A stretch of DNA of 64,000 nucleotides from Dehalococcoidia bacterium (GCA_003142375.1 PLME01000020.1:42765-106764); one strand, 5' to 3'. Shown: positions 4,106 through 56,613, numbered from the stretch's first letter. The notes: generated by a model not told the origin, from the letters alone. Numbers and translations: made by a program.

Positions 4106-5347
4106 TTGGAAGATAGATTAAATATAGCCATACTAAGTTTGCACACCTGCCCTTTCGACAGGCCGGGAAGCCGCTATACGGGCGGCATGAATATCTACAT
4201 ACAAAACCTTGCTCAGGAGCTAGGCAGACGGGGACATTCTATTGATATATATACGTGTTCCCATGTCGATGCCGATTTTTGCACTTTGGTCGACGGGAGT
4301 GAGAACATACGCTTAGTTCATATACAATCCCCGGACTACAGCTCGATTTCGGAGAAATCACTTGGTGATCATGTTAGCGGGTTGACCGATTCCATCGCCT
4401 CTTATTGCCTTGAGCACAATAAACATTATGATTTGATCCACAGCCACTACTGGCTGTCCGGCGTTGTCGGGAGCAAATTAAAGCAGCGATGGTGCATACC
4501 TCACATTACCATGTTTCATACCCTTGGCGCTGTAAAAAATAACCTGGGGCTGGGAATGCTGGAGCCGGACTACAGGATCTTAAATGAAGAGGTAGTTATC
4601 AGGGCCAGCGACCTCATAATCGCCTCTACCCAAAGAGAGAAACACGAGTTGATCAATAGATATGCGGCCGATCCAACCGCAATTGAAGTGGTCCCCTGCG
4701 GCATCAATCCTGCGATATTTCGCCCCATCGATAAGCAGCAAGCCCGGCAAATGTGCGGATTGCCCACTAAAAAAACGGCACTGTTCGTGGGTCGGCTGGA
4801 CCCGCTTAAAGCGCTGGGTAATTTGCTGGAGGCGATCTCCTGCCTGAAATCGCGTGATGATTTCCAACTGGTAGTGGTAGGCGGCAACGATCACGGTGTT
4901 GACTTTAAGGCCATCATGGATGCCGCCTGCGATTACGATGTAAGTCACCGAGTCAATTTTATAGGCTCGGTCCCACATGAACGCATGTATTTATACTATA
5001 ACGCGGCTGATTTCTGTGTAATACCATCGTATTACGAAAGCTTCGGCTTGGTAGCCCTTGAATCGCTGGCCTGCGGCACCCCCATAATAGCCACCGATGT
5101 AGGTGAAGTCCGTGATATAGCGGGGATATGTCAATCCTGCAAGATAATCACCGGGAATACACCACTGGAATTGTCAACAAGTATCAATGCCATGTTGGAC
5201 AATATCGGCAACAGGAAAAATGGATACAACAAAATGGTCGAACTTTACGGCTGGAGCCACGTGGTGGACAGAATAATTCAACACTACAGGGCGATTATCG
5301 ATAGAAACGCAGAGTATACACAGCAGCTTTGTTCGTATAAATCTTGA
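4106..5347 (+). CDS. GT4 retaining glycosyltransferase, MshA-like
   Basis: The N-terminal ILSLHTCPFDRPGSRYTGGMNIY..RRGHSIDIYT and HSHYWLSG closely match the MshA (D-inositol-3-phosphate glycosyltransferase) family signature. The C-terminal YESFGLVALESLACGTPIIA is the GT-B EX7E region. Confidence 0.8.
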   Translation: MEDRLNIAILSLHTCPFDRPGSRYTGGMNIYIQNLAQELGRRGHSIDIYTCSHVDADFCTLVDGSENIRLVHIQSPDYSSISEKSLGDHVSGLTDSIASYCLEHNKHYDLIHSHYWLSGVVGSKLKQRWCIPHITMFHTLGAVKNNLGLGMLEPDYRILNEEVVIRASDLIIASTQREKHELINRYAADPTAIEVVPCGINPAIFRPIDKQQARQMCGLPTKKTALFVGRLDPLKALGNLLEAISCLKSRDDFQLVVVGGNDHGVDFKAIMDAACDYDVSHRVNFIGSVPHERMYLYYNAADFCVIPSYYESFGLVALESLACGTPIIATDVGEVRDIAGICQSCKIITGNTPLELSTSINAMLDNIGNRKNGYNKMVELYGWSHVVDRIIQHYRAIIDRNAEYTQQLCSYKS

Positions 5348-5378
5348 TCCCATAATCTACATTTGAGGTAACACTGCA

Positions 5379-6071
5379 ATGAAAGAGCAATACTACGCTA
5401 TGATCATAGCCCCACATCCGGATGACTCTGAATTCGCCATAGCCGGCACTGTGGCAAAATGGACAAAGCAGGATAAAAAGGTCATTTACGTTATCTGTAC
5501 CAACGGCAACAAAGGTACGGATGATCCCGAGATGACGCCTGCGAAACTGGCCGAGATAAGAAGGCAGGAAGAGCTGGGAGCCGCTAAAACCCTGGGGGTA
5601 CAGGAGGTTATATTCCTTGACCATGACGACCAGTCGCTTGAAGATACTCCTGAATTTCGCAAGGAGTTGGTCAAGGTTATCCGTACCTACCGGCCTGAAC
5701 TGGTGGCAGCCCCCGACCCATACCGCAAATACATCTGGCACCGCGACCACAGAATCACAGGCCAGGTAGTCCTTGATGCCGTGTTCCCCTTTGCTCGCGA
5801 TCGTTTGGCCTACCCGGACCTGCTGGAGGCCGGATTCCAGCCTCACAAAGTCAAAGAGCTGCTTTTCTGGGGCGCAGATAAACAGAATTTCTACAGCGAC
5901 GTGTCGGATACCTACGACCTCAAAATGGCCGCTCTGGCCTGCCATAAAAGCCAGGTAAGTAAATTCCCGAAGGAATGGATCGAAGGATTCAAGTTCCTGC
6001 ACGCACAGAGGGCCAAGGGCAAGGGATATGAGCTGGCCGAGTCCTTCTATAGGGTCGAACTACCGGGATAA
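5379..6071 (+). CDS. PIG-L/LmbE family N-acetylglucosaminyl deacetylase (MshB/BshB-like)
   Basis: Has the AHPDDSEFAIAGT motif and a downstream HRDH, typical of LmbE-family zinc deacetylases. Confidence 0.85.
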   Translation: MKEQYYAMIIAPHPDDSEFAIAGTVAKWTKQDKKVIYVICTNGNKGTDDPEMTPAKLAEIRRQEELGAAKTLGVQEVIFLDHDDQSLEDTPEFRKELVKVIRTYRPELVAAPDPYRKYIWHRDHRITGQVVLDAVFPFARDRLAYPDLLEAGFQPHKVKELLFWGADKQNFYSDVSDTYDLKMAALACHKSQVSKFPKEWIEGFKFLHAQRAKGKGYELAESFYRVELPG

Positions 6072-6101
6072 AAGTCAATACTGCACTATTAACATAAACG
6101 G

Positions 6102-6128
6102 AAAGGGCTGGATTTTATCCAGCCCTTT
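6102..6128. terminator. Bidirectional intrinsic terminator hairpin
   Basis: The hairpin is aaagggctggat-ttt-atccagcccttt with flanking A/T runs. It sits between convergent genes. Confidence 0.7.
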
Positions 6129-6148
6129 TGTCTGTCGAACTCCCTGTA

Positions 6149-6289
6149 CTAGCCCTTGCCGATCTTGAACATCTTGGTCCCACAGGTTGGACACAGGCCC
6201 TGACTTGCCGGTTTACCATTCTTCATGGTAATGGATTTTGGATTTTTCATTTCCTTCTTAGCCCGGCATTTCATGCAATATGCTTGCAT
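6149..6289 (-). CDS. 46-aa zinc-ribbon protein (DUF5679-like), below the ORF-track cutoff
   Basis: Hand translation gives MQAYCMKCRAKKEMKNPKSITMKNGKPASQGLCPTCGTKMFKIGKG. It has two CxxC pairs, a near-identical paralog at 33887..34027, and is followed by the terminator at 6102-6128. Confidence 0.8.
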   Translation of the reverse strand: MQAYCMKCRAKKEMKNPKSITMKNGKPASQGLCPTCGTKMFKIGKG

Positions 6290-6445
6290 CTGCAACAACC
6301 CTCCTTAAAATAATTAATTTATGAAGCATAGGGTATTGCAAGCTCGGCTGTCAATGAAAATCCCTATCTATTTAATCTCACTTCATACGTGACCAGTACC
6401 AAAGTCCTATACGGGTATAAACTAAATACCCACTTGTATTATGTC

Positions 6446-6760
6446 TCAGGCTGACCACTTCTCAGCCAGGTCGCCGATAACGGGCAGCTTGAATTTGGCG
6501 CCCTGATAAGCCTTGATCATAAGGAGGATCCACAGTACGATGAAAATTACATCAATGACCCATACCAAGACAGGAAGCCAAAAGAATATGATAGACAATA
6601 CTGTCAATGCGCCAAAAGTGATAATGGACTGCATGGCATGGAATTTAACAAATTTACTTTCCTTTTCTAGCAGGAAGAAAATAATGCCAGTGACCCATCC
6701 CAGAACATAGCTCAGCAAGGCCGCCACATTTTCTTCCATACCTGTTGATGATTTCGCCAT
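6446..6760 (-). CDS. DUF4870-like small membrane protein
   Basis: 104 aa with about 3 TM helices. The pattern AALLSYVLGWVTGIIFFLLEKESKFVKFHAMQS matches the DUF4870 pattern. Confidence 0.65.
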   Translation of the reverse strand: MAKSSTGMEENVAALLSYVLGWVTGIIFFLLEKESKFVKFHAMQSIITFGALTVLSIIFFWLPVLVWVIDVIFIVLWILLMIKAYQGAKFKLPVIGDLAEKWSA

Positions 6761-6875
6761 TTACCAACCTCCTCGTCTTTTAATATAACTAGGATATCCG
6801 CTGCTACAGAGGGGTGTCAATTCACCATCAACAACACCACCAAAACTTATAAAATGAGCCTCGACAACCTGAGGG

Positions 6876-7982
6876 CTAACGGTTAAACCTTTTTCCCACT
6901 CTGAAAAGAAAGATGACCAACGCGGCCAGGATTAATATCCCCGCCAGTATCACAACCACTGCCCACCAAGGAATGCCGTCTGAAAAAACAGGCTTATCAT
7001 CTTGAGTAGATTGCGGGGCCTGCACCGTATGGAAAGTGAATACAGCGCCCGCATCGCTCAAAACAGGCTCCACGGCCCTGACCTGCCAGTAATAGGCTGT
7101 ATCGTATTCCAGAGAATCCTTTAACGCATAGGCCGTCGTAGATGCAAAATCGTCCACAACGATATCATGCAGTTGAGCATCCCTCGCCAGGATAAACTGA
7201 TATTTAGTTGTCCCCTGATAACCCGACCAACTGAAAGATATTGGCTTTACCGGGTATTGGGCGCTGCTTTCGGCGGGGGTGAAAGCGTGTGCACCGTAGC
7301 TGCTATCAATGGTGCGATAGCCGGGCTCGACGGTAAAAGTTTTCGTTGCGGACCAGGGACTATCAATATACTGCCCGGTAGCGGCCTGTATACTCCTCAC
7401 CCTCCAGTAGTAGGTATGCCCGGCCTCCAGGCTGCCCGGTGGCATCCAAAAGGCCGGTGATGCTGAGTCAGATGTGTCCATAGCTCCGGAGTCGTAAACC
7501 TTCAGGGTGAAACCGGGGTCCCTGGCTATCTGCACCTGATATTGTCTGGAAAGGCAGTAGTCCTTCCATGAAAAGTCCACCTGTGCGTTCCTGCCTGTGG
7601 CCGGATCGCTGCTGATATTATTTCCTTCCTCGGCACCTGACGCACTGACGTATGCGGTAGCATATCCGCTTTTAATTCCTGCCCTGTTCGAAGCCGTAAT
7701 TTTATAAATTGTCGAAGACGCCGGGGCAACACTCGTTTGACCCTCCATCGATACATCCCCAATACCGTGATCTATATTGACCGAAAGCGCGTTGGTTGCC
7801 TGCCAGCTTAAGGTAGCTGAAGCCCCTGCACTGATAATTGAGGGCGAAACTGTGAAACTGATGATTTGAGGTAAATTGTCACCTTGCGAAGACCCTGCCA
7901 AGGCCGGCGGACTGGACAGGCCGTCCATGACTGCCGCAATCGGATACAGCAAAACTAATAATATTATGTAAAGGAATTTCAT
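6876..7982 (-). CDS. Secreted, C-terminally membrane-anchored protein with Ig/FN3-like beta-sandwich repeats
   Basis: Has an N-terminal signal-like helix, repeated Y.W.VR (FN3-like) segments (HTYYWRVRS, TAYYWQVRA), and a C-terminal TM helix followed by a basic tail. Confidence 0.6.
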   Translation of the reverse strand: MKFLYIILLVLLYPIAAVMDGLSSPPALAGSSQGDNLPQIISFTVSPSIISAGASATLSWQATNALSVNIDHGIGDVSMEGQTSVAPASSTIYKITASNRAGIKSGYATAYVSASGAEEGNNISSDPATGRNAQVDFSWKDYCLSRQYQVQIARDPGFTLKVYDSGAMDTSDSASPAFWMPPGSLEAGHTYYWRVRSIQAATGQYIDSPWSATKTFTVEPGYRTIDSSYGAHAFTPAESSAQYPVKPISFSWSGYQGTTKYQFILARDAQLHDIVVDDFASTTAYALKDSLEYDTAYYWQVRAVEPVLSDAGAVFTFHTVQAPQSTQDDKPVFSDGIPWWAVVVILAGILILAALVIFLFRVGKRFNR

Positions 7983-25442: not shown

Positions 25443-25587
25443 AGCACCCTGATCAGCAAAATTATACCAGCCGACTGACAATTATTAAATGATTCAATCT
25501 GGATTTTAGTAGTTTGAGCCTCGGTTGCAGCCCGCCGTCAGTTTACTCGGGTTGACTATATAAAATGTAAATATTTATAATCTAAAG

Positions 25588-25684
25588 ACTTGGGAACAGG
25601 CGGCCCTTATATAATGGGTGCAGTCGGGCTTAAAGCAGCGGGATTTCGGCTCCGTGGGACTTAAGGTTCCACGGGGCTTTTTAA
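25588..25684 (+). promoter_or_regulatory. Structured 5' leader with intrinsic terminator upstream of the CDF transporter; possible metal-sensing (NiCo/czcD-like) riboswitch
   Basis: Contains repeated CAG/GGG junction-like strings (UGGGAACAGG, GGGUGCAGUCGGGC, GCAGCGGGA). These are followed by the hairpin ccgtgggac-ttaaggt-tccacgg and a T-run ending 8 nt before the ATG. The class assignment is from memory of the czcD motif and I did not verify it by folding. Confidence 0.3.
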
Positions 25685-38772: not shown

Positions 38773-39744
38773 CTAAATACCCATTAAAGGGCAGGCCAGC
38801 TCGTTTTTGTCTCCCGATTTCAACCCTCGCGCCCATTTAAACAGCTTCTCACGGTCTAAGCGCAGTGACCCGTCGGCTTTGACCCTGCCAACCTGATTTT
38901 CCGGGTGGTCCAGCTTTACTGTGCATTTGTTGAGCGACCCATCCGCCCGCACCGCAAAAGAATTCAGTCTGGTCGCATAGCATAGGGGAAGCAAATCAGC
39001 TGTAGTCATCGGCTCAATACCAAGCTTCTTCGCTTGCCGCACCAGCTGTTCTAAAAGCGGGGCGCTGTGCTCATCATCGAGCACCGGCAGCTCGGAGTCA
39101 CGAGGACACCCCAGCCGCGACAATGGCCGTATAAACAATTTGAAACGCTTGTCCGTCGCAAACGTATCAGCATATAGATTGATGAGCTCTGCCAGGCTTG
39201 CGCAGTTATCTGTTGCCAGATGGATGCGGACCACCACGGTGAATTGATCCTTAATTCTCTTGAAGCTTTTAAGATTATTCCATATCTGTGTAAAAGTGCC
39301 GCCACCTCCGGCCAAAACCCGCTTCACATCGTGGGCCTGCCCTACGCCATCCAGCGAAATCTGAAAACGGCGCACTTCCAGGTCGATCAGCTCTTGAAAA
39401 ACCGACGGCTTAAGCAGAAAACCATTAGTGGTCATATCGGCAAAGTAGACCAGATTATCACGTCGCTCAGCCAAAATCATTGCCTGACGCGAGATTTTCC
39501 TTATCACATTCAGCGCCAGGAGGGGTTCCCCACCGAACCAGGAAATCCCAAGTTGGCTGAGGGTACTGGAACGTTGGCGTAGAAACCTATTAACGGATTC
39601 GACTACGCCGGGCGCCATGGTTCCTCCCCGGGCAGTCTCATAGCAATAAATACAGCGGAAGTTGCAGGCTTCGGTGGGAAATATGATTAACTGTAAATAG
39701 TCATCGGCTATTGCGCCGATAATATCGTCACCGGATACTTTCAT
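38773..39744 (-). CDS. Radical SAM enzyme (peptide-maturase-like, Twitch/partial-SPASM C-terminus)
   Basis: Has the CNFRCIYC (CxxxCxxC) cluster, GGEPLL, and a C-terminal DGSLNKC with only a few further Cys. The ATG at 39744 lies 4 nt after the stop of the Cys-rich ORF; the track start at 39777 is GTG. Confidence 0.8.
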   Translation of the reverse strand: MKVSGDDIIGAIADDYLQLIIFPTEACNFRCIYCYETARGGTMAPGVVESVNRFLRQRSSTLSQLGISWFGGEPLLALNVIRKISRQAMILAERRDNLVYFADMTTNGFLLKPSVFQELIDLEVRRFQISLDGVGQAHDVKRVLAGGGGTFTQIWNNLKSFKRIKDQFTVVVRIHLATDNCASLAELINLYADTFATDKRFKLFIRPLSRLGCPRDSELPVLDDEHSAPLLEQLVRQAKKLGIEPMTTADLLPLCYATRLNSFAVRADGSLNKCTVKLDHPENQVGRVKADGSLRLDREKLFKWARGLKSGDKNELACPLMGI

Positions 39745-39748
39745 CTTT

Positions 39749-40054
39749 TCAGACGCAATTGCACATGCTATTCCCACCGCAACCGCACCCTGCGAGGCAG
39801 GTGCACATACTATCCGCAGGTAAAGGCATCGGTGGTTTCGGTGCAGGGCCTGGTTTCGGTGCAGGGCCTGGTTTCGGAGACGGCTTGGGGAGGGATTTGG
39901 TGAACCTCGAACGGCGCGACTTTAGCCGGCTAACGGTTCCTGCTAATTTTTTGTCCCCTATTTTGATCCTGCCCAGATCGTCAACCTCAACCCTGTCCAT
40001 AGCAATCTGAATTATGCTGCCGCCTTTGTTTTTAGCCTGCCCGCTTTTTTCCAT
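39749..40054 (-). CDS. 101-aa Cys-rich precursor-like protein (candidate RiPP precursor)
   Basis: GGAGG lies 7 nt upstream of the ATG at 40054. The C-terminal tail MCTCLAGCGCGGNSMCNCV has 6 Cys in 18 aa and follows the Pro-rich linker KPSPKPGPAPKPGPAPKPPMPLP. The ORF is translationally coupled to the radical SAM gene. Confidence 0.65.
   Translation of the reverse strand: MEKSGQAKNKGGSIIQIAMDRVEVDDLGRIKIGDKKLAGTVSRLKSRRSRFTKSLPKPSPKPGPAPKPGPAPKPPMPLPADSMCTCLAGCGCGGNSMCNCV
39834..39877. repeat. 18-bp perfect tandem repeat (2.4 copies) inside the precursor-like ORF, encoding PKPGPA units
   Basis: ggtttcggtgcagggcct occurs twice, followed by a partial copy ggtttcgg. The repeat is in frame. Confidence 0.9.
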
Positions 40055-40094
40055 CACTGTACCTCCTCAATAACAACCCCGTTACCCTAAAGCA

Positions 40095-40123: not shown

Positions 40124-40315
40124 ACCATTTTCAGCTTGAACCGGATTAATGGCGGGCGGACGATGATATAGAGCGACGGTCAAATACGCTTGACAAAAAG
40201 GTGTATAATTTAACCAACGCATAAACGATATACACAATAGAAAAATAAAAGACGGGTGGGGGCAAAGAAATAGCGTCCGTAAAGAGGTCACTTGGACGCC
40301 GTGGAGCGAGTAGTG

Positions 40316-40345
40316 AAACCGACCACTTAAGTGGTCGGTTTTTAT
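40316..40345 (+). terminator. Orphan plus-strand intrinsic terminator in the divergent intergenic region
   Basis: aaaccgaccac-ttaa-gtggtcggttt is followed by ttttatttta. There is no plus-strand ORF upstream of it. Confidence 0.6.
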
Positions 40346-40493
40346 TTTATTTACGATAGTCTGTGTGATAGCCAGGCCTGGAATCAGTAAACAGGAGTAG
40401 CTAAGGGGGGTGAGAGTGTTTGACAGATACCGGTTCAGGAATTGAGACAATTTTTAAACTTCACAGGATGGGATAGGAAAGGAGGGTGTTAAT

Positions 40494-40844
40494 ATGCCTA
40501 TAACTCTTGAACACGTCAAGGAGGCCACCAAACGAGCATTGGATGCCGGTACGTATAAACGCCTCAAAGGGCATGAGCACGTTGCGGTATTCATCAGGCC
40601 TGCTCCGCTCAAAGGCGGAACGGAGCTGCGAATTGGATACACAACGTACAAAGTGGAGAAGGATGCTTATCTTGTCTTCATTGATTTAAAGCATGATGCA
40701 AATTTTCAGCACCCCGTGCTCTACGAACTGCATAATCTTGAGGATGGCAGCATCCGAACCATCGAGGAGAAATACCCCATTGCAGATCAGGAGTTCGAGA
40801 GAAGCCTGATCCCCCACATCCTTCCGGGAAAGGAGGGTAAGTAA
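40494..40844 (+). CDS. Hypothetical 116-aa protein, first gene of the protease operon
   Basis: GGAAAGGAGGG lies upstream of the ATG, and the stop abuts the ATG of the next gene (40845). I recognise no family. Confidence 0.6.
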   Translation: MPITLEHVKEATKRALDAGTYKRLKGHEHVAVFIRPAPLKGGTELRIGYTTYKVEKDAYLVFIDLKHDANFQHPVLYELHNLEDGSIRTIEEKYPIADQEFERSLIPHILPGKEGK

Positions 40845-42764
40845 ATGACATACGCCAACATGTCCGCTTCGATCACCCGGCCAACGGCGGATCGCTATCA
40901 CGCCTTGTTATTTGTCGGGGTCTGTAATCGTGAGCGCTACGTATTGAGCCTCAACCGTTGGACAAACCTGCTTAATCAGATGTACGGCTATCCGCTCGCA
41001 AACATTCGGATTCTGGTTGGAACGTACAGCGGTTGGGCATCAATGGTAACCGGGACCGACGTCACGTATAACGCGACCAGGGCCCAGCTTGACACTGCAC
41101 TGGCTGACTACGCAGCAGGTGGTGCGCACGCGCTGGGGGCCAATGATAACCTGTTCATTTTCACCTATAACCACGGCGGTAATGATGCTGACAGCCTGGG
41201 GAGCTATCTCTGCTGCGAAAACTTCACAACTAAGTACTACGCCTCTGACCTTGCGACCAGAATCGGAGCAATTCACTGCAGACAGATTGTGCTCTTCGCT
41301 GCTCAGTGCGAGTCCGGTGGCTTTGTCGATCCGTTCATCGACGCTCTCTGGACTGGAACGCGTGGTGCGGTGATCGCAGCCAGCCGGGCGGATGAAGACA
41401 CGCAGGAGGCCGTTAGCGATAAGCTTTTCGCCTCAGCCTTCAACGGCCGCATGGTGCAGAACCCGCTGGATGACAATATAGACCTCGGCATAACCGGCGA
41501 AGGTAGTACCATGTACACCATTCCGGGATATCATACCAACCGGGTTGACTGGGGGCCAACCGGTGTCATAAGCACACGCGAGGCTTTTAATTGGGTCTAC
41601 GATCATTATGTCAATCACATCCACTCCAATCCCACCTACGCCTGGATCACGGAGGAGCCATTGTATAGACAGAAGGACTGGATGGAAGCAGACCAGCCGC
41701 TACACATCCGTCTGGGTGAACCCGATCTTGTCTTGCAGGATTGTGCCGCGGACACCGGCGAGGAGCCCAGCACCTGTGCCAACCCCTGGCAATCACCCGA
41801 CGTATATCCAGACAACACAGATCAGTTCCCTACTACCGGGCCCAATGAATATGTGCCAGCGCACGAAAACCGCTTCTTCGTCCGGACAGCCAACCGCGGA
41901 ACTGCTCCGTCCGACGACGTCTGGAGGGTACTTGAAGTCCGCGGTCTTGGTTTCACCGGTGGACCGGTTGGGCCGCCGCGAATCGACCGTGCTATTGAGA
42001 CCGTCGCCACCGAAACTGCTTCGGCGCGTTTGCGTCCCGGACGGGCGCATAGCCAGTATCAACGCATCCTGATCGGAGGCGATTTCGGGCACGGATGTAT
42101 CTCGGCAGCCGCTTTCAGCGGTGTTGATCAAATGAGCCACGGCCTCTGGAACATTGTTCCTGACAACGATCAGGCTCAGTGTAACCTCGACCCCGCTTCC
42201 GTTAGCGGCAGTGTTCCCGTCGACAGTTCCGATACCAACTCTAACGCCGGCACGATCATCCGTACAATTCCCGTATTCACACCGGAAGGCGGCACTTTCG
42301 AACTCCGCATCGGTGAACCGGATAAGAAATTGCCGGTCAAAATCCTGGCTAAACAGACTAAGCTGGCTCTTCGCAAAGGACAGCGGGGCGAATTCCGGCT
42401 TGAAATTCAGGTTGCCCCGAAAACCCCGGACGGGCTAGAAGGCAGGCATTCAGTGGCTATCATCCGTAATAAAAAGATCGTTGGCGGTGTGACCTTCCAG
42501 ATTAAGGTAGCTACCGCTTCCGCCAGGATTTTTGTCCATGATAATCGGGGACAGGATGTCCCCAAAGCAACGGTAGAACTTCGCCATCCCGGAGACCCGC
42601 GCATACTCACTGCTGTAACTGATGGCAAAGGGATAGCTTCCTTCGGACCACTCAACCCCGGATTCTACTTCGCCGGGATCAAGGGTGAACGGGCTGCGCC
42701 TGTCAGGATTCACATCGTTGCCGGGAAGGATAACTCTATCAAGATTGAAAAGGAAGGGAGGTAA
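40845..42764 (+). CDS. Clan CD cysteine peptidase, legumain (C13)-like, with beta-sandwich and carboxypeptidase-regulatory-like C-terminal domains; no signal peptide
   Basis: The catalytic dyad context is His-Gly in FIFTYNHGGND and Cys in VLFAAQCESGGF (legumain ACESG-like). A middle DLVLQDCAADTGEEPS...WQSPDVY domain follows. The C-terminal VHDNRGQDVPKATVEL...TDGKGIASFGPLNPGFY is CarboxypepD_reg-like. Confidence 0.7.
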   Translation: MTYANMSASITRPTADRYHALLFVGVCNRERYVLSLNRWTNLLNQMYGYPLANIRILVGTYSGWASMVTGTDVTYNATRAQLDTALADYAAGGAHALGANDNLFIFTYNHGGNDADSLGSYLCCENFTTKYYASDLATRIGAIHCRQIVLFAAQCESGGFVDPFIDALWTGTRGAVIAASRADEDTQEAVSDKLFASAFNGRMVQNPLDDNIDLGITGEGSTMYTIPGYHTNRVDWGPTGVISTREAFNWVYDHYVNHIHSNPTYAWITEEPLYRQKDWMEADQPLHIRLGEPDLVLQDCAADTGEEPSTCANPWQSPDVYPDNTDQFPTTGPNEYVPAHENRFFVRTANRGTAPSDDVWRVLEVRGLGFTGGPVGPPRIDRAIETVATETASARLRPGRAHSQYQRILIGGDFGHGCISAAAFSGVDQMSHGLWNIVPDNDQAQCNLDPASVSGSVPVDSSDTNSNAGTIIRTIPVFTPEGGTFELRIGEPDKKLPVKILAKQTKLALRKGQRGEFRLEIQVAPKTPDGLEGRHSVAIIRNKKIVGGVTFQIKVATASARIFVHDNRGQDVPKATVELRHPGDPRILTAVTDGKGIASFGPLNPGFYFAGIKGERAAPVRIHIVAGKDNSIKIEKEGR

Positions 42765-42850
42765 GGTGCTTACGGCCGGGGTGTCCGTGACCGGCCGCCC
42801 CGGCCTCTTTGGAGACTGCTCGAAATTGACAAAATTTATAGGGGGTCAGT

Positions 42851-43306
42851 ATGAGTGACTTTCAAAAAGACATAGAAACAATCAAAAACCCGAAAAACAT
42901 CAAGGAGGCGTTGTATGCCAGCGGGCCGGGCACTCTCTTAAAGGCCTTCGAGAAGGACCCGACGGTAATTCGTCTCATCCGGGGCGGCCCCAAGGTCATC
43001 CCTCTGATTTCCCAGGAAATTAAGGAGAACGGGCTGAAATTGCATCGCATCACCCTTTCCTGTTTTGCCTATATTCTCCAAAAGATAGATCCCGCTGCTG
43101 CTGCGGCGATACTAAAACCGCTTTTCATCCAGTCTATGAAGAAACCCGATCCGTTTTTCATCTATTTCGCTGCTCACGCCATTCGTCGAGACTTGAAGCT
43201 TCCGGTCAAATTGGATGACCCGGAATACTCTTATGGGGAGCTCCAGGAAACCATGGCATGGCTTGAACGAACGGAAAGGACCGGGCAAGGAGGTCAAAAT
43301 GCCTGA
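42851..43306 (+). CDS. Hypothetical 151-aa alpha-helical (HEAT/ARM-like?) protein
   Basis: An ORF within the operon whose stop overlaps the next start (ATGCCTGA). The helical-repeat impression is by eye only. Confidence 0.5.
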   Translation: MSDFQKDIETIKNPKNIKEALYASGPGTLLKAFEKDPTVIRLIRGGPKVIPLISQEIKENGLKLHRITLSCFAYILQKIDPAAAAAILKPLFIQSMKKPDPFFIYFAAHAIRRDLKLPVKLDDPEYSYGELQETMAWLERTERTGQGGQNA

Positions 43307-44717
43307 TACGCTCATCACCGGGTTTTATTCGGAAGCAGGTACAGCTCTGGAAATCTGGTCATATGATCCAAGTGTGACACCTGATCCTGATCCTGCAACT
43401 TGCCAGTACACCCACTTTAATCTCTCCACGGAAAATCTCGGGGACACTTGGCGCTACAACTGCTGGGGGTTTACTTTCCTTCCCCGGCGCTACTGGCTCA
43501 CAAGGTCTGCTGTGAACACCCTTCTCCAGGACAATTGTAACCCCGTTGCGGATGGATCTGTGGAGGTTGGAGATGTCATACGCTATCAGGACGGTGGTGT
43601 AACCGAGCACACGGGTCGGGTCTGGCAGACGGACGGCGCCGGCCATGCCACCTGGATACGGAGCAAATGGGGACCCAGCGGAGAGTACATTCATATACCA
43701 TCCGATGTCCCCGAAATCTACGGCACGGAACTGGCCTATTTCCGCCAGTGGGCTCCGCTACGCGGGGACCCCGCTGAAATAAACAAGATCGCTGATCTAT
43801 GGATAAAAGATTCGCCGGCTGATAACGGCGAACAGGGCCTTCGCGCCCCATGGTGGACGAGTCCGGACATTCTGGTTGATGCTTTCCCCTTCGATGGAGC
43901 CCCCGATCTCAACCCGTATTTCGATCATCCCAACCGCATTTGGGCGGTCGTGCGCAATCGAACCAACCAGCATGTCGACAATGTGTACGTCCGTTTCTAT
44001 TGGGCCGATCCGGCAGCCGGTCTTCCCCCTGCTTCCTGGAACCTCATCACAAGTCCGCCCCCAAACCCGGTGGGGCCTTACAGCATCGACGGAGATTCAA
44101 GCATTGAGACAGATTATGTGGAATGGACCCCTTCGGCCGCACCTTCCCATCAATGCCTGTTGGCGATCGCCTACATCAACGACAACCCTCAGGATTCCAA
44201 CAATCCTGACCCGATCGTATATCCGTTTGAAATCCCCTGGGATAACAATATTGCCCAGCGTAATGTCGAGGTAATGGAAATGGGGAACGGTTCGAGCGGA
44301 GGGTTCTCCATCCAGGTCGGTAATCCATTTCCTCATGACAAGGAAGTGGTAGCCTTCGTCACAGCCGTTCTCACTTTCAGTCCGAGGCTTCCTCTTTTCG
44401 GATTTCCCAAGGATATCCGCCCTCTAAAAATATCGCTCAATCTGGATAAAACGGGGGCATCTTCCCTGAAACCATGGGACAAAATTAAAAGGACCAAGGG
44501 CCCATTCATATCCGGCGATCCGTGCCAGAGGGAAAAGGCCATTGCCGGTCTGACCCTTCCGAAATTTACATTTCTGCCCCAAAAGCCACACCGTCTGGAT
44601 GTGAAGATTGATATTCCAAAGGACGCATTGAAAGGCTCGGTCTACTATCTACACATTTTCCAGACCATTAAGGGTGCGGTAACTGGCGGCTACACCGCGG
44701 TGGTTATAGTCGTTTAA
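43299..44717 (+). CDS. Protein with N-terminal Cys-His (papain/NlpC-like?) domain and C-terminal beta-sandwich domain shared with the C13-like peptidase
   Basis: The start is set at the ATG at 43299 (AAGGAGG 5 nt upstream) rather than the track start at 43215. Blocks WRYNCWGF ... IRY..GG.TEHTG ... RSKWGPSGEYIH recur in the 54570..55676 protein. DLWIKDSPADNGEQ...WTSPDILV parallels DLVLQDCAADTGEE...WQSPDVY in the peptidase. Confidence 0.6.
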   Translation: MPDTLITGFYSEAGTALEIWSYDPSVTPDPDPATCQYTHFNLSTENLGDTWRYNCWGFTFLPRRYWLTRSAVNTLLQDNCNPVADGSVEVGDVIRYQDGGVTEHTGRVWQTDGAGHATWIRSKWGPSGEYIHIPSDVPEIYGTELAYFRQWAPLRGDPAEINKIADLWIKDSPADNGEQGLRAPWWTSPDILVDAFPFDGAPDLNPYFDHPNRIWAVVRNRTNQHVDNVYVRFYWADPAAGLPPASWNLITSPPPNPVGPYSIDGDSSIETDYVEWTPSAAPSHQCLLAIAYINDNPQDSNNPDPIVYPFEIPWDNNIAQRNVEVMEMGNGSSGGFSIQVGNPFPHDKEVVAFVTAVLTFSPRLPLFGFPKDIRPLKISLNLDKTGASSLKPWDKIKRTKGPFISGDPCQREKAIAGLTLPKFTFLPQKPHRLDVKIDIPKDALKGSVYYLHIFQTIKGAVTGGYTAVVIVV

Positions 44718-44754: not shown

Positions 44755-46599
44755 TCACGGCGATAAGTCCGTTTCCAGCGGACCGGGCATAGGCTCAGGT
44801 GTTGGGTTCGGCACCGGGCCGGGCATCGGTTCAGGTGTGGGATTGGGTACCGGTCCGGGCATCGGACCCGGTGTTGGGTTAGGTACAGGTCCCGGCATAG
44901 GCCCAGGGCCGGGCAGGCTTGTAAACATTATTGTGAAGGTTATATAACCGCCAGGGGAAAGCTCCTGTGACGAAGGCGACACTCCGGTGAATTCGGCGCT
45001 CCAGGGCCCGCCGTTCTGAAACTCCAAGCGATAGCTTCCCGCCGGAGCAGCGTCAAATGTACGGGATACCTCGTCCGCCGATTGCACATACGGCCCGTGC
45101 AGCACGTAGTTGGCTGATCCGTACCAGGACTTCCCGTCAAGCGTTGCATCCACAGTGACATATCCCCTGCTCTCGGCGGTGAAGTGCAGGGTATATACAA
45201 TCGAACCGCCCGCAGAAAGGTACTGTGTGGGCGAAGGCGAGATCCCCGTCAGCGTAGCGCCCACCGGCCCGCCCGAGTTATACACCAGGGTATAGGTCCC
45301 CTTGGGATAACCGGACAGCCAGCTCGGGATCGTATCCCCACTATCCATCAGGCTGCCGTTGGTCAGGGAATAACTTATAGGGCCTGAGCCCGGATTCGTC
45401 ACCCACTGCGTACCGTCCACCGTGGCATAGACGGTGATGTTGCCCTTGTCCTGCTGGCCGATAAAGTTCAAGTTGAATACGATGGTACGGCCGGGGGCCA
45501 ACGATTGCGTGGGCGACTGGGTGATGCTCGTCAGGACGGCATTGGAGGGCCCACCGCTGAGGTAAGTGACCGTATAGCTGCCCGTGGGCACACTGGAATA
45601 GGTACGCGGCACCGAGTAGTCCATGCTGAGGAAGGGGTTGCTGAGGGAGAAGTATGTGGCGCCCGACCAGGGAGAGCCATTCAAAGTAGCCTGGACTATA
45701 ATATTGCCGGCCTGCGACTGCCTGTAGTAGGTCAGCGTAAACTCCGCCGGCCTGCGGCCACCCACTACCAGAGTGGTATCCGGTATTATGCCTCCCAGCG
45801 AAGCACCCGCAGGCCCGCCGGATTTATAGGTGATCCTGTAGGTGCCGTCGGGGACGCTCCCTAGCTGCACCGGCACAGATGAATATGAGCCCGAAACCGG
45901 GCCGGAGATCGAATAGTTGACCGCGCCGGACCACGGAGCACCGTTGAAATAGGCCTTCACTGACAGGGTTGACGAGGTGGAAGACGAGAAGTTGAGCGTA
46001 TAGTTTATCTCTCCGTTGGCCGGCAGCGTTTGCAACGCCGAGGGTGAGATGCCGGTGAACACGGCATTCGCCGGCCCGAGAGCATTATATATAACAGTAT
46101 ATGAGCCGGGGTCAACGCCTATGAATGTATGCGGCACTATGGAATCCCTGTCCTGAAGGGGACCGTAGAGGGTATAGTCTATGCCGCCGGTCCAGGGGGC
46201 GCCGTCCAGCGTGGCGTCTACGTTTATCCTGGAGTCCCCGGGCGTCTGGAAGTTGAGCGTAAAGGAGATTGTGCCTCCTGCTGCAAGCTGCTGGGCCGGG
46301 GCCGGTGTGACATTGGCCAGGGTGGCCCCCGGCGGTCCGCCGTAGTTATAGGTGATGGAATATACGCCGGCTTTGACCCCGTTAAAGCTCCACGGCAGAT
46401 TATCTTCGGTATCCGAGAAGGGGCCGCTCACCTGGTAGTTGGCGCTGCCCGACCATTTTGCGCCGTCCAGCGTGGCGCTGACATAGATGTTGCCTGTGGT
46501 TGCCGGAGGCACAGGAGGGATGGGGGGGTTGGAGCACACCGCAAAAACAAGTACTAAGATTAAAGTAACTAATAGAACCCAGTATGCTCTCCTTTTCAT
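44755..46599 (-). CDS. Secreted/lipoprotein-like protein with six about 90-aa Ig-like tandem repeats and a Pro-rich repetitive C-terminal tail
   Basis: Has an N-terminal signal (LILVLVFAVCS). Six repeats have the form ATLDG.PWSG...Y.L.GP.......P..F..V..G.Y...Y..GGP..A....I.P...Q.L..GG.I.F.L.F. The tail is PGPMPGPVPNPT repeated three times. Confidence 0.7.
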   Translation of the reverse strand: MKRRAYWVLLVTLILVLVFAVCSNPPIPPVPPATTGNIYVSATLDGAKWSGSANYQVSGPFSDTEDNLPWSFNGVKAGVYSITYNYGGPPGATLANVTPAPAQQLAAGGTISFTLNFQTPGDSRINVDATLDGAPWTGGIDYTLYGPLQDRDSIVPHTFIGVDPGSYTVIYNALGPANAVFTGISPSALQTLPANGEINYTLNFSSSTSSTLSVKAYFNGAPWSGAVNYSISGPVSGSYSSVPVQLGSVPDGTYRITYKSGGPAGASLGGIIPDTTLVVGGRRPAEFTLTYYRQSQAGNIIVQATLNGSPWSGATYFSLSNPFLSMDYSVPRTYSSVPTGSYTVTYLSGGPSNAVLTSITQSPTQSLAPGRTIVFNLNFIGQQDKGNITVYATVDGTQWVTNPGSGPISYSLTNGSLMDSGDTIPSWLSGYPKGTYTLVYNSGGPVGATLTGISPSPTQYLSAGGSIVYTLHFTAESRGYVTVDATLDGKSWYGSANYVLHGPYVQSADEVSRTFDAAPAGSYRLEFQNGGPWSAEFTGVSPSSQELSPGGYITFTIMFTSLPGPGPMPGPVPNPTPGPMPGPVPNPTPEPMPGPVPNPTPEPMPGPLETDLSP

Positions 46600-47317: not shown

Positions 47318-47370
47318 AGTATATTGGTTTTAGTTTCATGTTTACCTAATATGTATATTTGTTGTCATTT

Positions 47371-48171
47371 ATGAAATTAAGAAAAACGCCAGGATATAGG
47401 TACGTAACCAACAAAGGCAACCTGGAAGACAATTGTCTGCCAGCAATTTATTTTGATTCTTCAGTTGTAATCGACTATTGGTTGACAGAGGGCTTTGAAA
47501 TCGAACCACCTGATGGCATTATTGCAAGAATTGCAGAACATAATGAACCGAAAGAACATCAAGTTATTAGGGATTTATTTAAAGCAGATAAAGATTTCAA
47601 TAAAATAGTTGAAATAAGAAAGAAACTGTTATTTGGTGAACCCAAGTATGCTGCTGTGATTAGCCCTTTGTGCTTACTGGAACTAATGGAATGGAACGCA
47701 GAAGCGGCTTTTAAAGAAATGGCCAGTCGAGCGGTCGGTACGCTAGCGATACAACGGAAGGGCAAAAAACAAATTGGTGATTATCTTAAAAAGCTGATGG
47801 TATTACGAAACGATGAAATGATAAAGCTGAAAAAGCAAAAAAGAGAATTTACTACCGGGTTAGAAAATATCATGAGCGAAACTTGGTTAAACGGGAGTTT
47901 CGCGGAATGCCATGGGTTGCAAGGATTGTTGCAAGTCGACATAGTGAATTTCAAATTGACAATCGGTGGGTCATGGCAGGAACCATCTGCATATGCCTAT
48001 CTCCAGCTTGGAGTAGCGGATATTATGCATATTCAGTTGGCAAAGCACCTTGGATGCAGCTATATCGCTAGTTTTGATGACGATTTTAGAAGAGTGAAAG
48101 ACATTGTCAAAGAAGAAACTAAAATGAATATGTTAACAAGTCCAGAAGAAATTCTAAGAATTCTGAGGTAA
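47371..48171 (+). CDS. PIN-like nuclease-fold protein with a large helical insertion
   Basis: Has the four PIN acidic positions in order: YFDSSVVID, CLLELMEW, GVADIMHIQLA and IASFDDDF. The gene is AT-rich. The start is uncertain: either the ATG at 47371 or the TTG at 47359. Confidence 0.55.
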   Translation: MKLRKTPGYRYVTNKGNLEDNCLPAIYFDSSVVIDYWLTEGFEIEPPDGIIARIAEHNEPKEHQVIRDLFKADKDFNKIVEIRKKLLFGEPKYAAVISPLCLLELMEWNAEAAFKEMASRAVGTLAIQRKGKKQIGDYLKKLMVLRNDEMIKLKKQKREFTTGLENIMSETWLNGSFAECHGLQGLLQVDIVNFKLTIGGSWQEPSAYAYLQLGVADIMHIQLAKHLGCSYIASFDDDFRRVKDIVKEETKMNMLTSPEEILRILR

Positions 48172-48207
48172 TCAAATCAATTGTGGGGGGAGCAACCTAT
48201 ACCAGAC

Positions 48208-49938
48208 CTATTCCACTGATTCACCCGTCCAAAAATCGTTAAATCTTGCGTAAGCTAGGGGAGGCCCAAGGCGAAGTATATTGTCAGCAAAATCAATCAC
48301 CAAGCATTTGTCCGTTCCTCCAAACTTGGGTCCTCTTAGACCCCGCCCAACAATTTGCTCATAAAGTACTTCGCTGGTTGTCGGCCTGCAGATTGCTATA
48401 CATTCGGTTTTCGGGGCATCAAATCCCGTCGTAAGAACTCCAAAGTTGCATAAAAACTGCATTTTACCCTCTTTAAATTCTTGAATAAGGCCCCTTCTAA
48501 TTGTCAATGGAGTATCAGAAGATATTGCACCTGCATGGTGCCCGCTTAACTCGGACAAAAGATCCGCAAGAAAATATGCATGTTCAACAGTGCAGGCATA
48601 TACCAACGTTGGTGTATTAGTTGGCAATGCAAGTAATCTTCTTATAATTAGTTCATTTCTTTTACGGTCGTTTGCTAATCGTTTTAAGAAACCTGATGCT
48701 ATATCACCTTCCAACTGCATTTGTTGAATCTCATCTTCAGTCAATACGTATTCTCTTCCAGACCGATAAATAATATGACTAGGCCACGCCAAATATCCAT
48801 TCTCTCTAAAATATCTGAGGGGGGTTTCTGCAAACTCTTTCCCAAGGTCGGGCTTTATAAGATATGCATCAAACTTGTTGACTAGCTTCATCGTTTCTTC
48901 GTTTTTATATAAGCCGGACCGACCAGGCGTAGCAGTCAAACCGCAAATTGGGAAAAGTTCAGGCCCACAAATTTCCTCTGCCTTAGTCATGAGGGAATTA
49001 TACATATCAGATATCGCGCGATGGGCCTCATCAATTATCATTGCACCCGTATCCTTTAGTATGGCATTTAAAGCTTCGTCATCACTTTTTGCACGATTGT
49101 ACAGCTGCTGGATACTTGTAACAACTGCTCCTCCGGTCAGCTCATTCACAGGTATATCTCTTCCCCCAAAATAGCGATAGACTCTCAAAGCACTTGTATA
49201 TTCCCTTGCACCCCATAATTGTCTAATGCAGGATATAGCCTGTTCACATAATTCTTCACTTTGTGCAATCCAGAGTAGATATTGTCTGTTGGCGAAACGT
49301 GGATGCATCCAGTCAATGAATGCTTCTACTGCAACCCGTGTTTTCCCACCACCAGTTGGAAGTGTTACCACACAGCGCGTCTTTTTCCCCTCTCTTGTAA
49401 GAACATCTAGCATTTGTTTTTTTAAATAGTCTTGAAATTGAACGAGTTTCGGAGGGATCCCAAGTGGCGGTATATTATCAATTGTCGGAAGCACAGATAT
49501 TGGGCGAATCCCAGCGAATATTTTTGGAAACCCCAGACTTTCTACAAAATCTATTGGCCATGGGCCACGTGCAACCCACTTAAGTTCGGACAAAGGTTTC
49601 CTCATATGTGATGAAGTAGTTATATTGCTTTGTGGTTTATATCGTCTAAAAAGTCTAGTCACTTCCGCATCTGACAAATGCGCAAGCAATTTATACCTTA
49701 GTTCTTTTACATATTTACTACTACCACAAAAAAGACCGGGACCAGTTCTGCGTATTAACCTTTTGGCAACATCAACTCGTGATGAGTTCTTATTACCAAT
49801 CTTCTTTACCAAGCTATTTGCTTCTTGTGTTTGTTTGGTGCTAAGTAATTGACCGAGCAGTTGAGCAGAAATCTTGTATTTATTTACCAAAAGGTCAGCA
49901 GCTAGCTCAATTTCTTCTTCATTTGGAAATATGTCCAT
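48208..49938 (-). CDS. SF2 helicase (DEAD/DEAH-box, type III restriction Res-like) with unrecognised about 190-aa N-terminal domain
   Basis: Has motif I LPTGGGKT, motif II IIDEAHR, motif III LTATPGR and motif VI QIVGRGLRG. The gene is AT-rich and GAGGAGG lies upstream of the ATG. Confidence 0.8.
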   Translation of the reverse strand: MDIFPNEEEIELAADLLVNKYKISAQLLGQLLSTKQTQEANSLVKKIGNKNSSRVDVAKRLIRRTGPGLFCGSSKYVKELRYKLLAHLSDAEVTRLFRRYKPQSNITTSSHMRKPLSELKWVARGPWPIDFVESLGFPKIFAGIRPISVLPTIDNIPPLGIPPKLVQFQDYLKKQMLDVLTREGKKTRCVVTLPTGGGKTRVAVEAFIDWMHPRFANRQYLLWIAQSEELCEQAISCIRQLWGAREYTSALRVYRYFGGRDIPVNELTGGAVVTSIQQLYNRAKSDDEALNAILKDTGAMIIDEAHRAISDMYNSLMTKAEEICGPELFPICGLTATPGRSGLYKNEETMKLVNKFDAYLIKPDLGKEFAETPLRYFRENGYLAWPSHIIYRSGREYVLTEDEIQQMQLEGDIASGFLKRLANDRKRNELIIRRLLALPTNTPTLVYACTVEHAYFLADLLSELSGHHAGAISSDTPLTIRRGLIQEFKEGKMQFLCNFGVLTTGFDAPKTECIAICRPTTSEVLYEQIVGRGLRGPKFGGTDKCLVIDFADNILRLGPPLAYARFNDFWTGESVE

Positions 49939-55803: not shown

Positions 55804-56613
55804 TCAATGGGATAAATTAATTATTTCAATTTCCCCCTTGTGATTATCTATGATATTGGGATGCTGTGGAGAAGGCGGTGGGTAATTCTGGAACTCAATT
55901 GCAATGTCTTTTTTAACAAAGGTATAAATTTCTTCGATTGAAACCTCGCCATCATTATCAATATCCACATTATTTAAGTGGTCAAATGAATTCAAAATAT
56001 AATATGTGAAAATTCCATGTTCATACTTTTTTTCTTGCCAACATTTTTCGTTCCCCATCCCACCAGTAAGTATTACTCGATTTGTACCACTAATTTTAGT
56101 ACCATAGTTTCCACTTTCGCAGGAATCCAATAGGATAGTGATATTATTCGTGTCTAAATCATCTAGCCAAGTATTTAAATCCTGGTAACCAATATCATTG
56201 CAATTAGAATTCTTTAATGAATCATACATTTCTAGGAATGCAGAATTCCCATGCCCCGCAAAAAATAACAAGACTGTGTCATTTTTCTTCTCTTTAGGAT
56301 TTAACCATTCAGCTATAGCCATTTTGATGTTTTCTTCAGTGGCATCCGAATCAACAAGTGTCTTGATATGATCATAACCAAAAAAGTATTCTAGTTGTTT
56401 TGAAATAGCTAAAGCATCCTTATTTGCATAACGAGTATCTACATCCAAGTATTTATAGTTACCTATCCCAATTATTATCGCCCATTTGTTGGACTGACTT
56501 AAGGAATCAGTTTGTATTTGAAAACGATCAGCTAAGCCGGTAATAAGACAGAGGCATAAAATTAATCCCAAAGTTATCAATAAAAAAACACAAATATTTC
56601 TCTTTGTTATCAA
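55804..56613 (-). CDS. Secreted/anchored clan CD (caspase/legumain-like) peptidase with C-terminal EF-hand
   Basis: KWAIIIGIGNYKY is followed by His-Gly in LLFFAGHGNS and Cys in ILLDSCESGNYG. There is a canonical 12-residue EF-hand loop DIDNDGEVSIEE and an N-terminal hydrophobic helix. Confidence 0.75.
   Translation of the reverse strand: MITKRNICVFLLITLGLILCLCLITGLADRFQIQTDSLSQSNKWAIIIGIGNYKYLDVDTRYANKDALAISKQLEYFFGYDHIKTLVDSDATEENIKMAIAEWLNPKEKKNDTVLLFFAGHGNSAFLEMYDSLKNSNCNDIGYQDLNTWLDDLDTNNITILLDSCESGNYGTKISGTNRVILTGGMGNEKCWQEKKYEHGIFTYYILNSFDHLNNVDIDNDGEVSIEEIYTFVKKDIAIEFQNYPPPSPQHPNIIDNHKGEIEIINLSH

Follow-up and report, generated by a model that had tools for sequence, protein, structure and literature searches.

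A candidate mobile cassette of two signal-free cysteine-hydrolase modules in a Dehalococcoidia bacterium

Introduction

Legumain-type enzymes are known chiefly from eukaryotes, as peptide ligases and as proteases that are secreted or reside in vacuoles or lysosomes. What role could such an enzyme have in a bacterium when its gene encodes no export signal and is followed by the gene of a second, unrelated Cys-His protein? This question is raised by four open reading frames (ORFs), g1 to g4, of a Dehalococcoidia bacterium (GCA_003142375.1 PLME01000020.1:42765-106764), which lie at 40494-44717 on the plus strand of the 64,000-nt stretch that we examined (hereafter the window, whose numbering is used for all its positions). 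A preliminary description had presented them as a tightly packed operon encoding a legumain-like peptidase (g2) and a protein with an unrecognized Cys-His domain (g4), and had linked them to intracellular conflict systems.

Our tentative answer, which we hold at somewhat less than an even chance, is that these genes form a mobile cassette of two zymogen-like cysteine-hydrolase modules, whose pro-regions have upstream genes of their own, whose products bear no export signals and which is switched on by cyclic di-GMP (c-di-GMP) in this organism. The gene anatomy, the family assignments, a domain shared by the two enzymes, the absence of signals, the co-occurrence of the modules and several gene fusions were observed directly; from these we infer the steps of the mechanism given below.

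Results

Two gene pairs rather than one compact operon

ORF calling recovered all four of the plus-strand genes previously described: g1 (40494-40844, 116 amino acids [aa]), g2 (40845-42764, 639 aa), g3 (42851-43306, 151 aa) and g4 (43299-44717, 472 aa). Conserved homologs were found for each of them, which indicates that they are real genes and not chance ORFs. The junctions also agree with the earlier account. The ribosome-binding site of g1 (AGGAGG) stands 8 nt 5' of its ATG, and the TAA of g1 (40842-40844) lies directly against the ATG of g2 (40845), with another AGGAGG within the 3' end of g1. The stop of g3 overlaps the start of g4 (ATGCCTGA), and AAGGAGG is found 7 nt 5' of position 43299. 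The longest ORF of g4 begins at 43215 (500 aa), but this ribosome-binding site and an N-terminus ("MP...") conserved in 42 aligned relatives support a start at 43299.

The tight packing claimed for the whole operon was confirmed within g1/g2 and within g3/g4 but not over all four genes, because an 86-nt gap with a GC-rich hairpin (42774-42805, plus strand; stem of 10+3 bp) separates g2 from g3. The RNA of this region (42760-42850) presents a folding energy of -38.7 kcal/mol (z-score of -2.6) and the hairpin stem is not followed by a U-run. This hairpin could set the two modules apart, as an element of mRNA stabilization or processing.

A legumain-like peptidase and a probable papain-like hydrolase

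The g2 protein matches the Pfam family Peptidase_C13 (PF01650) with 23.9 bits for a cut-off of 22.8 (E = 3.4e-5) over aa 97-185 (41133-41399). We found 44 homologs of g2; when 39 relatives were scanned at E <= 1, Peptidase_C13 was matched by 38 of them (best E = 3.4e-6) and another family of clan CD by none. The NHGG motif of g2, with His110 (codon 41172-41174), and its AAQCESGG motif, with Cys155 (codon 41307-41309), align with NHGG and ACESG of the Arabidopsis vacuolar processing enzyme (VPE) gamma (PDB 5obt); this alignment does not reach the N-terminal residues of the Asn/Asp-specific S1 pocket. His110 is invariant in the 39 relatives; Cys155 is conserved in 38 and missing only in the most divergent member. 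The His-Gly/Cys dyad that had been recognized by its legumain-like contexts is therefore a family feature, in a protein that scores above the C13 cut-off. The C-terminal tail, previously described as CarboxypepD_reg-like, does match this prealbumin-like family (aa 563-621, 42531-42707; E = 4e-4), as do 34 of the 39 relatives (best E = 5.8e-7). A sequence search against solved structures returned weak matches only, to plant vacuolar processing enzymes, and the NCBIfam search of g1-g4 gave only a chance-level match, for g2 (BMC_CsoS1, E = 0.07). These results are consistent with a C13, legumain-like peptidase, with marginal scores.

The Cys-His domain of g4, which had been left unrecognized, appears related to an uncharacterized Pfam family. 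The Pfam scan of the g4 protein of the window yielded no significant match, and its similarity to DUF7689 (aa 49-148, 43443-43742) is of 11.9 bits (E = 0.39; cut-off of 22.6). Four g4 relatives (P0142, P0151, P0218 and P0244), however, match DUF7689 above the cut-off (23-25 bits), and 33 of 42 relatives match it at E <= 1 over aa 50-155. DUF7689 is the sole Pfam family above cut-off for the g4-type domain: the best CHAP match among g4 relatives reaches 20.3 bits for a cut-off of 26 (E = 8e-4; model positions 6-78 of 81), and Amidase_6 matches are also sub-threshold (E >= 0.005).

More than 132 homologs of g4 were found in bacteria and archaea. In 42 sequences, Cys55 (YNCWGF; codon 43461-43463), His104 (EHTG; codon 43608-43610), Lys123-Trp124-Gly125, Glu129 and His132 are invariant. 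The succession of Cys55 and His104 follows the classical order and spacing of CHAP and NlpC-P60 enzymes, and Glu129 and His132 are candidates for the third catalytic residue. No match was obtained when the PDB sequences were searched with the g4 protein or with the profile of its family. Comparison of the N-terminal domain by hhalign to approximate sequences of the LysK CHAP domain and of Tse1 was not significant, with local alignments on the Cys and His motifs. Overall, the N-terminal domain of g4 is probably papain-like and of CHAP/NlpC-P60 type.

A shared CARDB-type domain and missing export signals

The preliminary description had proposed that g2 and g4 carry the same beta-sandwich domain, and the two regions do align: aa 288-455 of g2 (41706-42209) and aa 160-335 of g4 (43776-44303) have the signature motifs D-L-x3-D, D-x-G-x-E, W-x-SPD, NR, H-x-C and N-[ND]-x-A-Q-x-N in common. 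With a domain profile, 2759 cluster representatives were retrieved at E <= 1e-3. Among 55 carriers that were scanned, 21 matched the Pfam family CARDB (PF07705; best E = 1.2e-18). Direct CARDB matches were also obtained for g4 relatives (3 of 42 in the family scan; P0208, E = 3e-5, 24.6 bits for a cut-off of 22.7). By its profile relationships, the common beta-sandwich is thus classified as CARDB-type, and in both enzymes it is followed by another immunoglobulin (Ig)-like domain; g4 has a C-terminal beta-sandwich. The 55 carriers combine the shared domain with several catalytic or associated domains: Peptidase_C25 (8, of which 7 also have Propeptide_C25), VWA (8) and S8 (6), as well as M14, M28, tyrosinase and C1. 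A Cys-Gln thioester built from the H-x-C and A-Q-x-N motifs was considered and dropped, since some g4 family members have Ala at the position of this Gln.

Three g4 relatives of about 920-930 aa (P0204, P0209 and P0211) present an extra VWA domain after the CARDB-type domain, and lack a signal-like N-terminus.

The absence of signal peptides from g1-g4 noted earlier extends beyond the window. A hydropathy and twin-arginine scan of the four proteins revealed neither an N-terminal hydrophobic stretch nor a twin-arginine motif, while the neighboring 614-aa lipoprotein was positive. An N-terminal hydrophobic signal was detected in 0 of 44 g2 relatives, 1 of 120 g4 relatives and 0 of 37 g1 relatives. 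In comparison, 56 of 142 other carriers of the shared domain (~40%) present such a signal. This domain thus usually resides on secreted hydrolases, and in the families of g2, g4 and g1 the absence of signals is a consistent, family-wide feature.

The same comparison cuts against the purely intracellular logic of the preliminary description, as the other CARDB-type carriers are largely secreted hydrolases. The enzymes might instead leave the cell without a signal, by lysis, in vesicles or through a host-specific system, with the surface or the biofilm matrix as their site of action and g1 and g3 protecting the producer as cytoplasmic inhibitors or chaperones. This would fit the company that the shared domain keeps elsewhere (C25 with Propeptide_C25, S8, M14, M28 and VWA, often with a signal), the prealbumin-like tail of g2, the candidate c-di-GMP riboswitch in front of the operon in this genome, c-di-GMP being classically tied to surface and biofilm traits, and the convergent lipoprotein gene, whose product carries Ig-like repeats. 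However, about 200 family members of bacteria and archaea are without a signal-like N-terminus, no secretion-system gene is conserved beside the cassette, and a single host-specific system is hard to square with a spread over several phyla and archaea. We consider export rather unlikely; if true, unusual exported matrix proteases would be a modest finding.

Small upstream proteins as candidate pro-regions

The small proteins g1 and g3 present little similarity to known families. The 37 relatives of g1 are 59-82% identical, and its AlphaFold2 model, with a predicted local distance difference test (pLDDT) score of 83, consists of an N-terminal helix on an antiparallel sheet. The profile of the g1 family matched PDB sequences at chance level only (E ~1); a likeness of the model to cystatin-scaffold "affimers" in a structure search (E ~1) was not counted as evidence. 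No Pfam family matched g3, and its family profile retrieved from the PDB sequences only helical-repeat proteins with weak scores (E = 0.02-0.7).

Gene fusions are more informative. A search of plasmids returned only distant relatives, among which WP_015313957.1, a "C13 family peptidase" of a Methanomethylovorans hollandica plasmid, carries a g1-like domain fused N-terminally (hhalign probability of 93%, E = 2.4e-7) to a g2-like C13 domain and a CARDB-type domain (BLASTP E = 5e-14). This protein also lacks a signal peptide. Similarly, four representatives (P0232, P0214, P0324 and P0332) are g4-like proteins that carry g3 as their N-terminal part, and g3 lies directly upstream of g4-type genes in every case. 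Because both small proteins have counterparts fused N-terminally to the enzymes, they look like split-off prodomains. Position, coupling and fusions together suggest that g1, the accessory protein of the C13 module, and g3, that of the second module, are N-terminal pro-regions that became separate polypeptides. By analogy with gingipain propeptides and Spi-type inhibitors, we infer that they may inhibit or chaperone their enzymes.

Two modules that occur together and apart

We compared 19 distinct g2 loci from metagenomes and genomes, including the window. The g1 gene was found immediately upstream of g2 in all 19. The order g1-g2-g3-g4 was observed in seven loci (the window, L001, L002, L013, L018, L019 and L021), and in four others (L003, L005, L016 and L026) a second g3'-g4' lineage, ~33% identical to g4, lies upstream of g1-g2. 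In total, g3-g4 stand beside g1-g2 in at least 11 loci and in two gene orders. Locus L007 retains g3 and g4 as decayed remnants downstream of g1-g2, and the most divergent locus (L008, 44% identity) is the only one that clearly lacks g3-g4; the remaining contigs end too near the cassette to judge their presence. Conversely, five loci (L010, L011, L012, L030 and L031) contain g3-g4 without g1-g2.

The preliminary description had made its operon depend on the four genes being conserved together, and they do co-occur in other genomes; the pairs also separate, however, so that its single four-gene unit has to be divided. The genes form two analogous two-gene modules, g1+g2 and g3+g4, and not one indivisible operon. 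That these modules became neighbors more than once argues for a functional link between them. An all-against-all comparison of the flanking ORFs of the 19 loci identified nothing recurrent besides g1-g4, with one minor exception: a gene for a small metallopeptidase-like protein (Zincin_1, PF06262) lies ~4 kb from the cassette in L003 (14139-14522) and L007 (13430-13804). No other recurrence was seen between unrelated loci, and this one may be a coincidence. In L007, the g1-g2 pair, which includes the first-ranked g2 homolog (75% identical), is preceded by two other genes (5175-7465), for a 480-aa protein with trypsin-like motifs recognized by eye (GDSGS; a His in "NEHVLG") and for a 261-aa repeat protein.

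The genes on the other side of g1 in the window encode a radical S-adenosylmethionine (SAM)/SPASM maturase (38773-39777, minus strand; best NCBIfam match TIGR04463 "rSAM_vs_C_rich", far under its cut-off) and, overlapping it, a 102-aa precursor-like ORF (39749-40057, minus strand) with the Cys-rich tail CTCLAGCGCGGNSMCNCV after a Pro/Lys-rich spacer. They likely constitute a pair for a ribosomally synthesized and post-translationally modified peptide (RiPP).

The cassette enzymes could act as leader peptidases or ligases in the maturation of this peptide: the maturase and the Cys-rich ORF divergently adjoin g1, as reported earlier, and legumains are generally known to be able to ligate peptides. 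However, this arrangement is not conserved, as neither the maturase nor the Cys-rich peptide is found beside the cassette in any other of the 19 loci. The sole other locus with a radical-SAM gene is L007, whose enzyme is unrelated (27% identity over 116 aa) and whose adjacent small protein is not Cys-rich. Within the window, the candidate riboswitch and terminator divide the two transcription units. Because co-conservation is lacking, we rejected the radical-SAM linkage of the cassette, and a role in RiPP maturation is largely refuted and extremely improbable.

Distribution, mobility and genomic context

When 185,579 species-representative genomes were searched, only 4 contained relatives of g2, and these 4 belong to different phyla: a Desulfobacca metagenome-assembled genome (MAG), an unclassified bacterium, Ca. 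Sabulitectum and a Bacteroidota MAG. Some relatives of g1 and g4 are labeled Methanosarcinales, Methanoregula or Hodarchaeota, labels that derive from metagenome bins and could reflect mis-binning. The members of the family are 58-82% identical, and such high identity across patchy hosts points to horizontal spread. Integrases, transposases and toxin-antitoxin-like genes were found near the cassette in several loci, and HicB-like (UPF0150), KAP nucleoside triphosphatase (NTPase), TIR-TPR and methyltransferase genes in some. In several other loci the flanks consist of ordinary metabolism or transport genes.

One contig labeled Methanosarcinales (L029, 2803-7123) contains g1, then only a 33-aa ORF at the position of g2, and then a gene for a TIR-TPR protein of 1256 aa; a group II intron reverse transcriptase and part of a transposase are encoded upstream. 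This cassette was apparently broken up within a mobile or defense hotspot.

We then weighed the earlier idea that the genes form an anti-phage or abortive-infection system, in which the proteases would be the effectors and the small proteins labile inhibitors or sensors, in the manner of toxin-antitoxin pairs. Signal-free proteases, a small gene coupled before each large gene and a patchy, transfer-like distribution with high conservation would all suit such a system, as would the integrases and the HicB-like, KAP, TIR-TPR and methyltransferase neighbors of some loci; the window itself encodes a PIN protein, a caspase and a ResIII helicase with matches to PADLOC models of restriction type. However, g1-g4 gave 0 matches at E <= 0.1 in PADLOC-DB v2 and none in PHROGs, and no relatives of g2 or g4 were found in the viral contigs that we scanned. 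The cassette has no NTPase, nuclease or nucleotide-sensor component, several loci are flanked by metabolism or transport genes with only g1-g4 recurring, and the N-terminal fusions of the small proteins suit zymogens better than toxin-antitoxin pairs. Thus, the proposed connection to conflict systems found no support in these searches, and the earlier failure to match the gene set to a named system was reproduced with PADLOC. A literature search on DUF7689, on C13 peptidases with CARDB and on legumain-like defense systems found nothing relevant. We regard a defense role as possible but unsupported, and on balance as unlikely.

The same searches bear on whether g4, and perhaps g2, might be antagonistic toxins directed at the cell wall or enzymes akin to endolysins, g3 and g1 then serving as their immunity proteins. 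The likeness of g4 to CHAP and Amidase_6 would be expected under this scenario, and endolysins and some injected amidase effectors are generally known to combine a catalytic domain and beta-sandwich domains without a signal. However, neither PHROGs nor the viral contigs contain relatives, holin and secretion-system genes are missing nearby, and a fusion of g3 to g4 would be unexpected for an immunity protein. Moreover, the small partners carry no signals, and therefore could not protect a periplasm. We consider a cell-wall target very unlikely.

A probable c-di-GMP riboswitch in the leader of g1

The intergenic gap upstream of g1 measures 436 nt and contains two elements that are new here relative to the preliminary description: a riboswitch aptamer and a terminator. 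The strongest RNA match of the window, obtained with cmscan, is the c-di-GMP-II aptamer (RF01786) at 40249-40333 on the plus strand. This match covers the full model (1-84) with 49.8 bits for a gathering score of 53.5 (E = 6.4e-10 in a local search and 5.9e-8 over the whole window). Six inner pairs can form in P1 and 7 of 8 pairs in P2. The pseudoknot UCAC (40288-40291)/GUGA (40313-40316) differs from the consensus GCAC/GUGC by a change on both sides that preserves complementarity. This sequence is a probable c-di-GMP-II riboswitch aptamer.

A terminator-like hairpin with a U-run (40315-40352, plus strand) overlaps the 3' part of the aptamer and would constitute its expression platform. The hairpin (40315-40342) has a 12-bp stem and a 4-nt loop followed by TATTTTATTT, and it dominates the minimum-free-energy (ligand-free) fold. 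Its 5' arm (40315-40326) consists of the same bases as the pseudoknot partner and the 3' strand of P1. The simplest reading of this overlap is an ON-switch in which c-di-GMP binding would prevent termination. Since the aptamer was not found upstream of the cassette in the 18 other loci, it represents a local acquisition that is informative for this organism only.

Proposed mechanism and points against it

The reading that we tentatively prefer, two zymogen-like modules with separate pro-regions, can be translated into a sequence of steps. In each module (g1 with g2, g3 with g4), the small protein would be translationally coupled directly upstream of its enzyme, and would bind it as a folding aid, as an inhibitor that imposes latency, or as both. 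The enzymes would thereby be made and kept latent in the cytoplasm, and the shared beta-sandwich may steer both of them to a common protein or peptide target. There, the C13 enzyme would act after Asn/Asp, by cleavage or transpeptidation, while hydrolysis of an amide or isopeptide bond would fall to the CHAP-like enzyme. In the present organism, the terminator would form when no ligand is bound, and c-di-GMP would lead the aptamer to sequester the 5' arm of the terminator, so that the operon would be read through.

Several of our results weigh against this proposal. CARDB-type and prealbumin-like domains typically belong to extracellular proteins, and fit export better than cytoplasmic action. 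The C13 assignment relies on sequence profiles that are barely significant (23.9 vs 22.8 bits), and the profile of the g2 family retrieved legumains from the PDB sequences at E ~0.9 only. For g1, Foldseek found nothing significant among solved structures with the model as query. In the AlphaFold2 model of g4 (pLDDT of 82), residues 51-70 around Cys55 present a pLDDT of 65-71 and are non-helical. The whole-chain Foldseek search of this model against PDB and BFVD retrieved Ig-like arrays only (transglutaminase barrels and adhesins, template modeling score < 0.2), and is therefore uninformative on the catalytic domain. Finally, the RF01786 match falls 3.7 bits short of the curated threshold, and the absence of the aptamer from the 18 other loci makes c-di-GMP control a local trait and not a property of the family.

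A bolder version of the proposal would be that the cassette represents an undescribed class of intracellular dual proteases, one legumain-type and one CHAP-type, each caged by a split-off prodomain, mobile between bacteria and archaea, c-di-GMP-controlled in this organism and acting as conflict or cell-fate effectors or as a protein-ligating pair of transpeptidases. We consider this quite improbable as a whole. If the enzymes were true ligases or regulated death or defense effectors, they would be of interest to protein engineers and for microbial immunity.

Relation to known systems

The components of the cassette (C13, CHAP-like, CARDB and riboswitch) are of known kinds and it is their arrangement that is undescribed. 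In common with legumain, VPE and GPI8 (C13, clan CD), g2 presents the His-Gly...Ala-x-Cys dyad in the same order and context and a marginal match to PF01650 (24 bits). In contrast to eukaryotic legumains, g2 has no signal peptide, which is likewise missing from 44 of 44 relatives, and no C-terminal LSAM-type prodomain; it possesses instead a CARDB-type beta-sandwich, a prealbumin-like tail and a separate 116-aa partner encoded upstream.

The layout of pro-region, Cys peptidase and beta-sandwich recalls gingipain-type zymogens (Propeptide_C25, Peptidase_C25 and Ig-like domains), and is the layout of the M. hollandica fusion of g1-like, C13 and CARDB domains. The differences are that the peptidase is C13 and not C25, that the pro-region is a separate polypeptide in the window, and that there is no signal and no type IX sorting domain. 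Moreover, the gingipain prodomain is a beta-sandwich, while the model of g1 is alpha+beta.

Small inhibitors encoded beside cysteine proteases offer another parallel. Spi is a propeptide-like inhibitor encoded beside streptopain (SpeB) and homologous to the enzyme's own propeptide, and staphostatins are encoded beside staphopains and protect the producer. Both share with g1 and g3 the position of a small co-transcribed protein beside a Cys protease, and the fusions imply a Spi-like origin from a propeptide. Streptopain and the staphopains are secreted, however, and their inhibitor genes lie downstream, whereas the enzymes of the cassette are signal-free and the small gene is upstream; inhibition by g1 and g3 is proposed by analogy.

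For g4, the resemblance to CHAP, NlpC-P60 and Amidase_6 (Peptidase_CA) enzymes lies in the distance of ~50 residues between a Cys and the following His, which is part of an H-x-G-hydrophobic strand, and in an N-C-W-G-F motif that resembles D-C-S-G-F. It differs from them in that only DUF7689 is above cut-off, the CHAP matches being sub-threshold. Finally, the leader of g1 shares with the c-di-GMP-II ON-switches of Clostridioides difficile pilin and adhesin genes a full-length aptamer match, a preserved pseudoknot and a terminator that overlaps the 3' side of the aptamer through its 5' arm, but the genes downstream encode signal-free peptidases and not pili or adhesins.

A conserved, signal-free prokaryotic legumain type that is always accompanied by a small partner would be a new deployment of these chemistries in bacteria and archaea, as would its repeated pairing with a second, unrelated Cys-His enzyme that bears the same targeting domain. 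The existence of both split and fused small partners leads to a testable hypothesis, namely that they are prodomains acting in trans, and the riboswitch provides an experimental handle on the timing of operon expression in this organism.

Other features of the window

The gene convergent with g4 (44755-46599, minus strand) encodes a 614-aa predicted lipoprotein (MKRRAYWVLLVTLILVLVFAVC...) with repeated Ig-like units and a C-terminal Pro-rich repeat (PMPGPVPNPTPE, three copies), and is not conserved at the other loci. Further downstream, at 47359-49938, the gene of a 270-aa PIN-domain protein (plus strand) adjoins that of a 576-aa ResIII/DEAD helicase (minus strand), which matches the PADLOC models of type IV restriction (E = 4e-15) and PbeA (E = 4e-12). 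The GC-content drops to 0.41 at 48-50 kb, and this region, 2.6 kb from the cassette, is a possible defense or mobile segment. A second clan CD peptidase of the window is encoded at 55804-56613 (minus strand, 269 aa): it presents a Peptidase_C14 caspase domain (E = 1.6e-15) and also matches C13 (E = 2.8e-8). This gene lies in an apparent foreign island, with a GC-content of 0.36-0.37 at 54-58 kb for ~0.52 elsewhere. Lastly, a NiCo riboswitch aptamer was matched at 25582-25664 on the plus strand (34.8 bits for a gathering score of 37; E = 4.9e-4).

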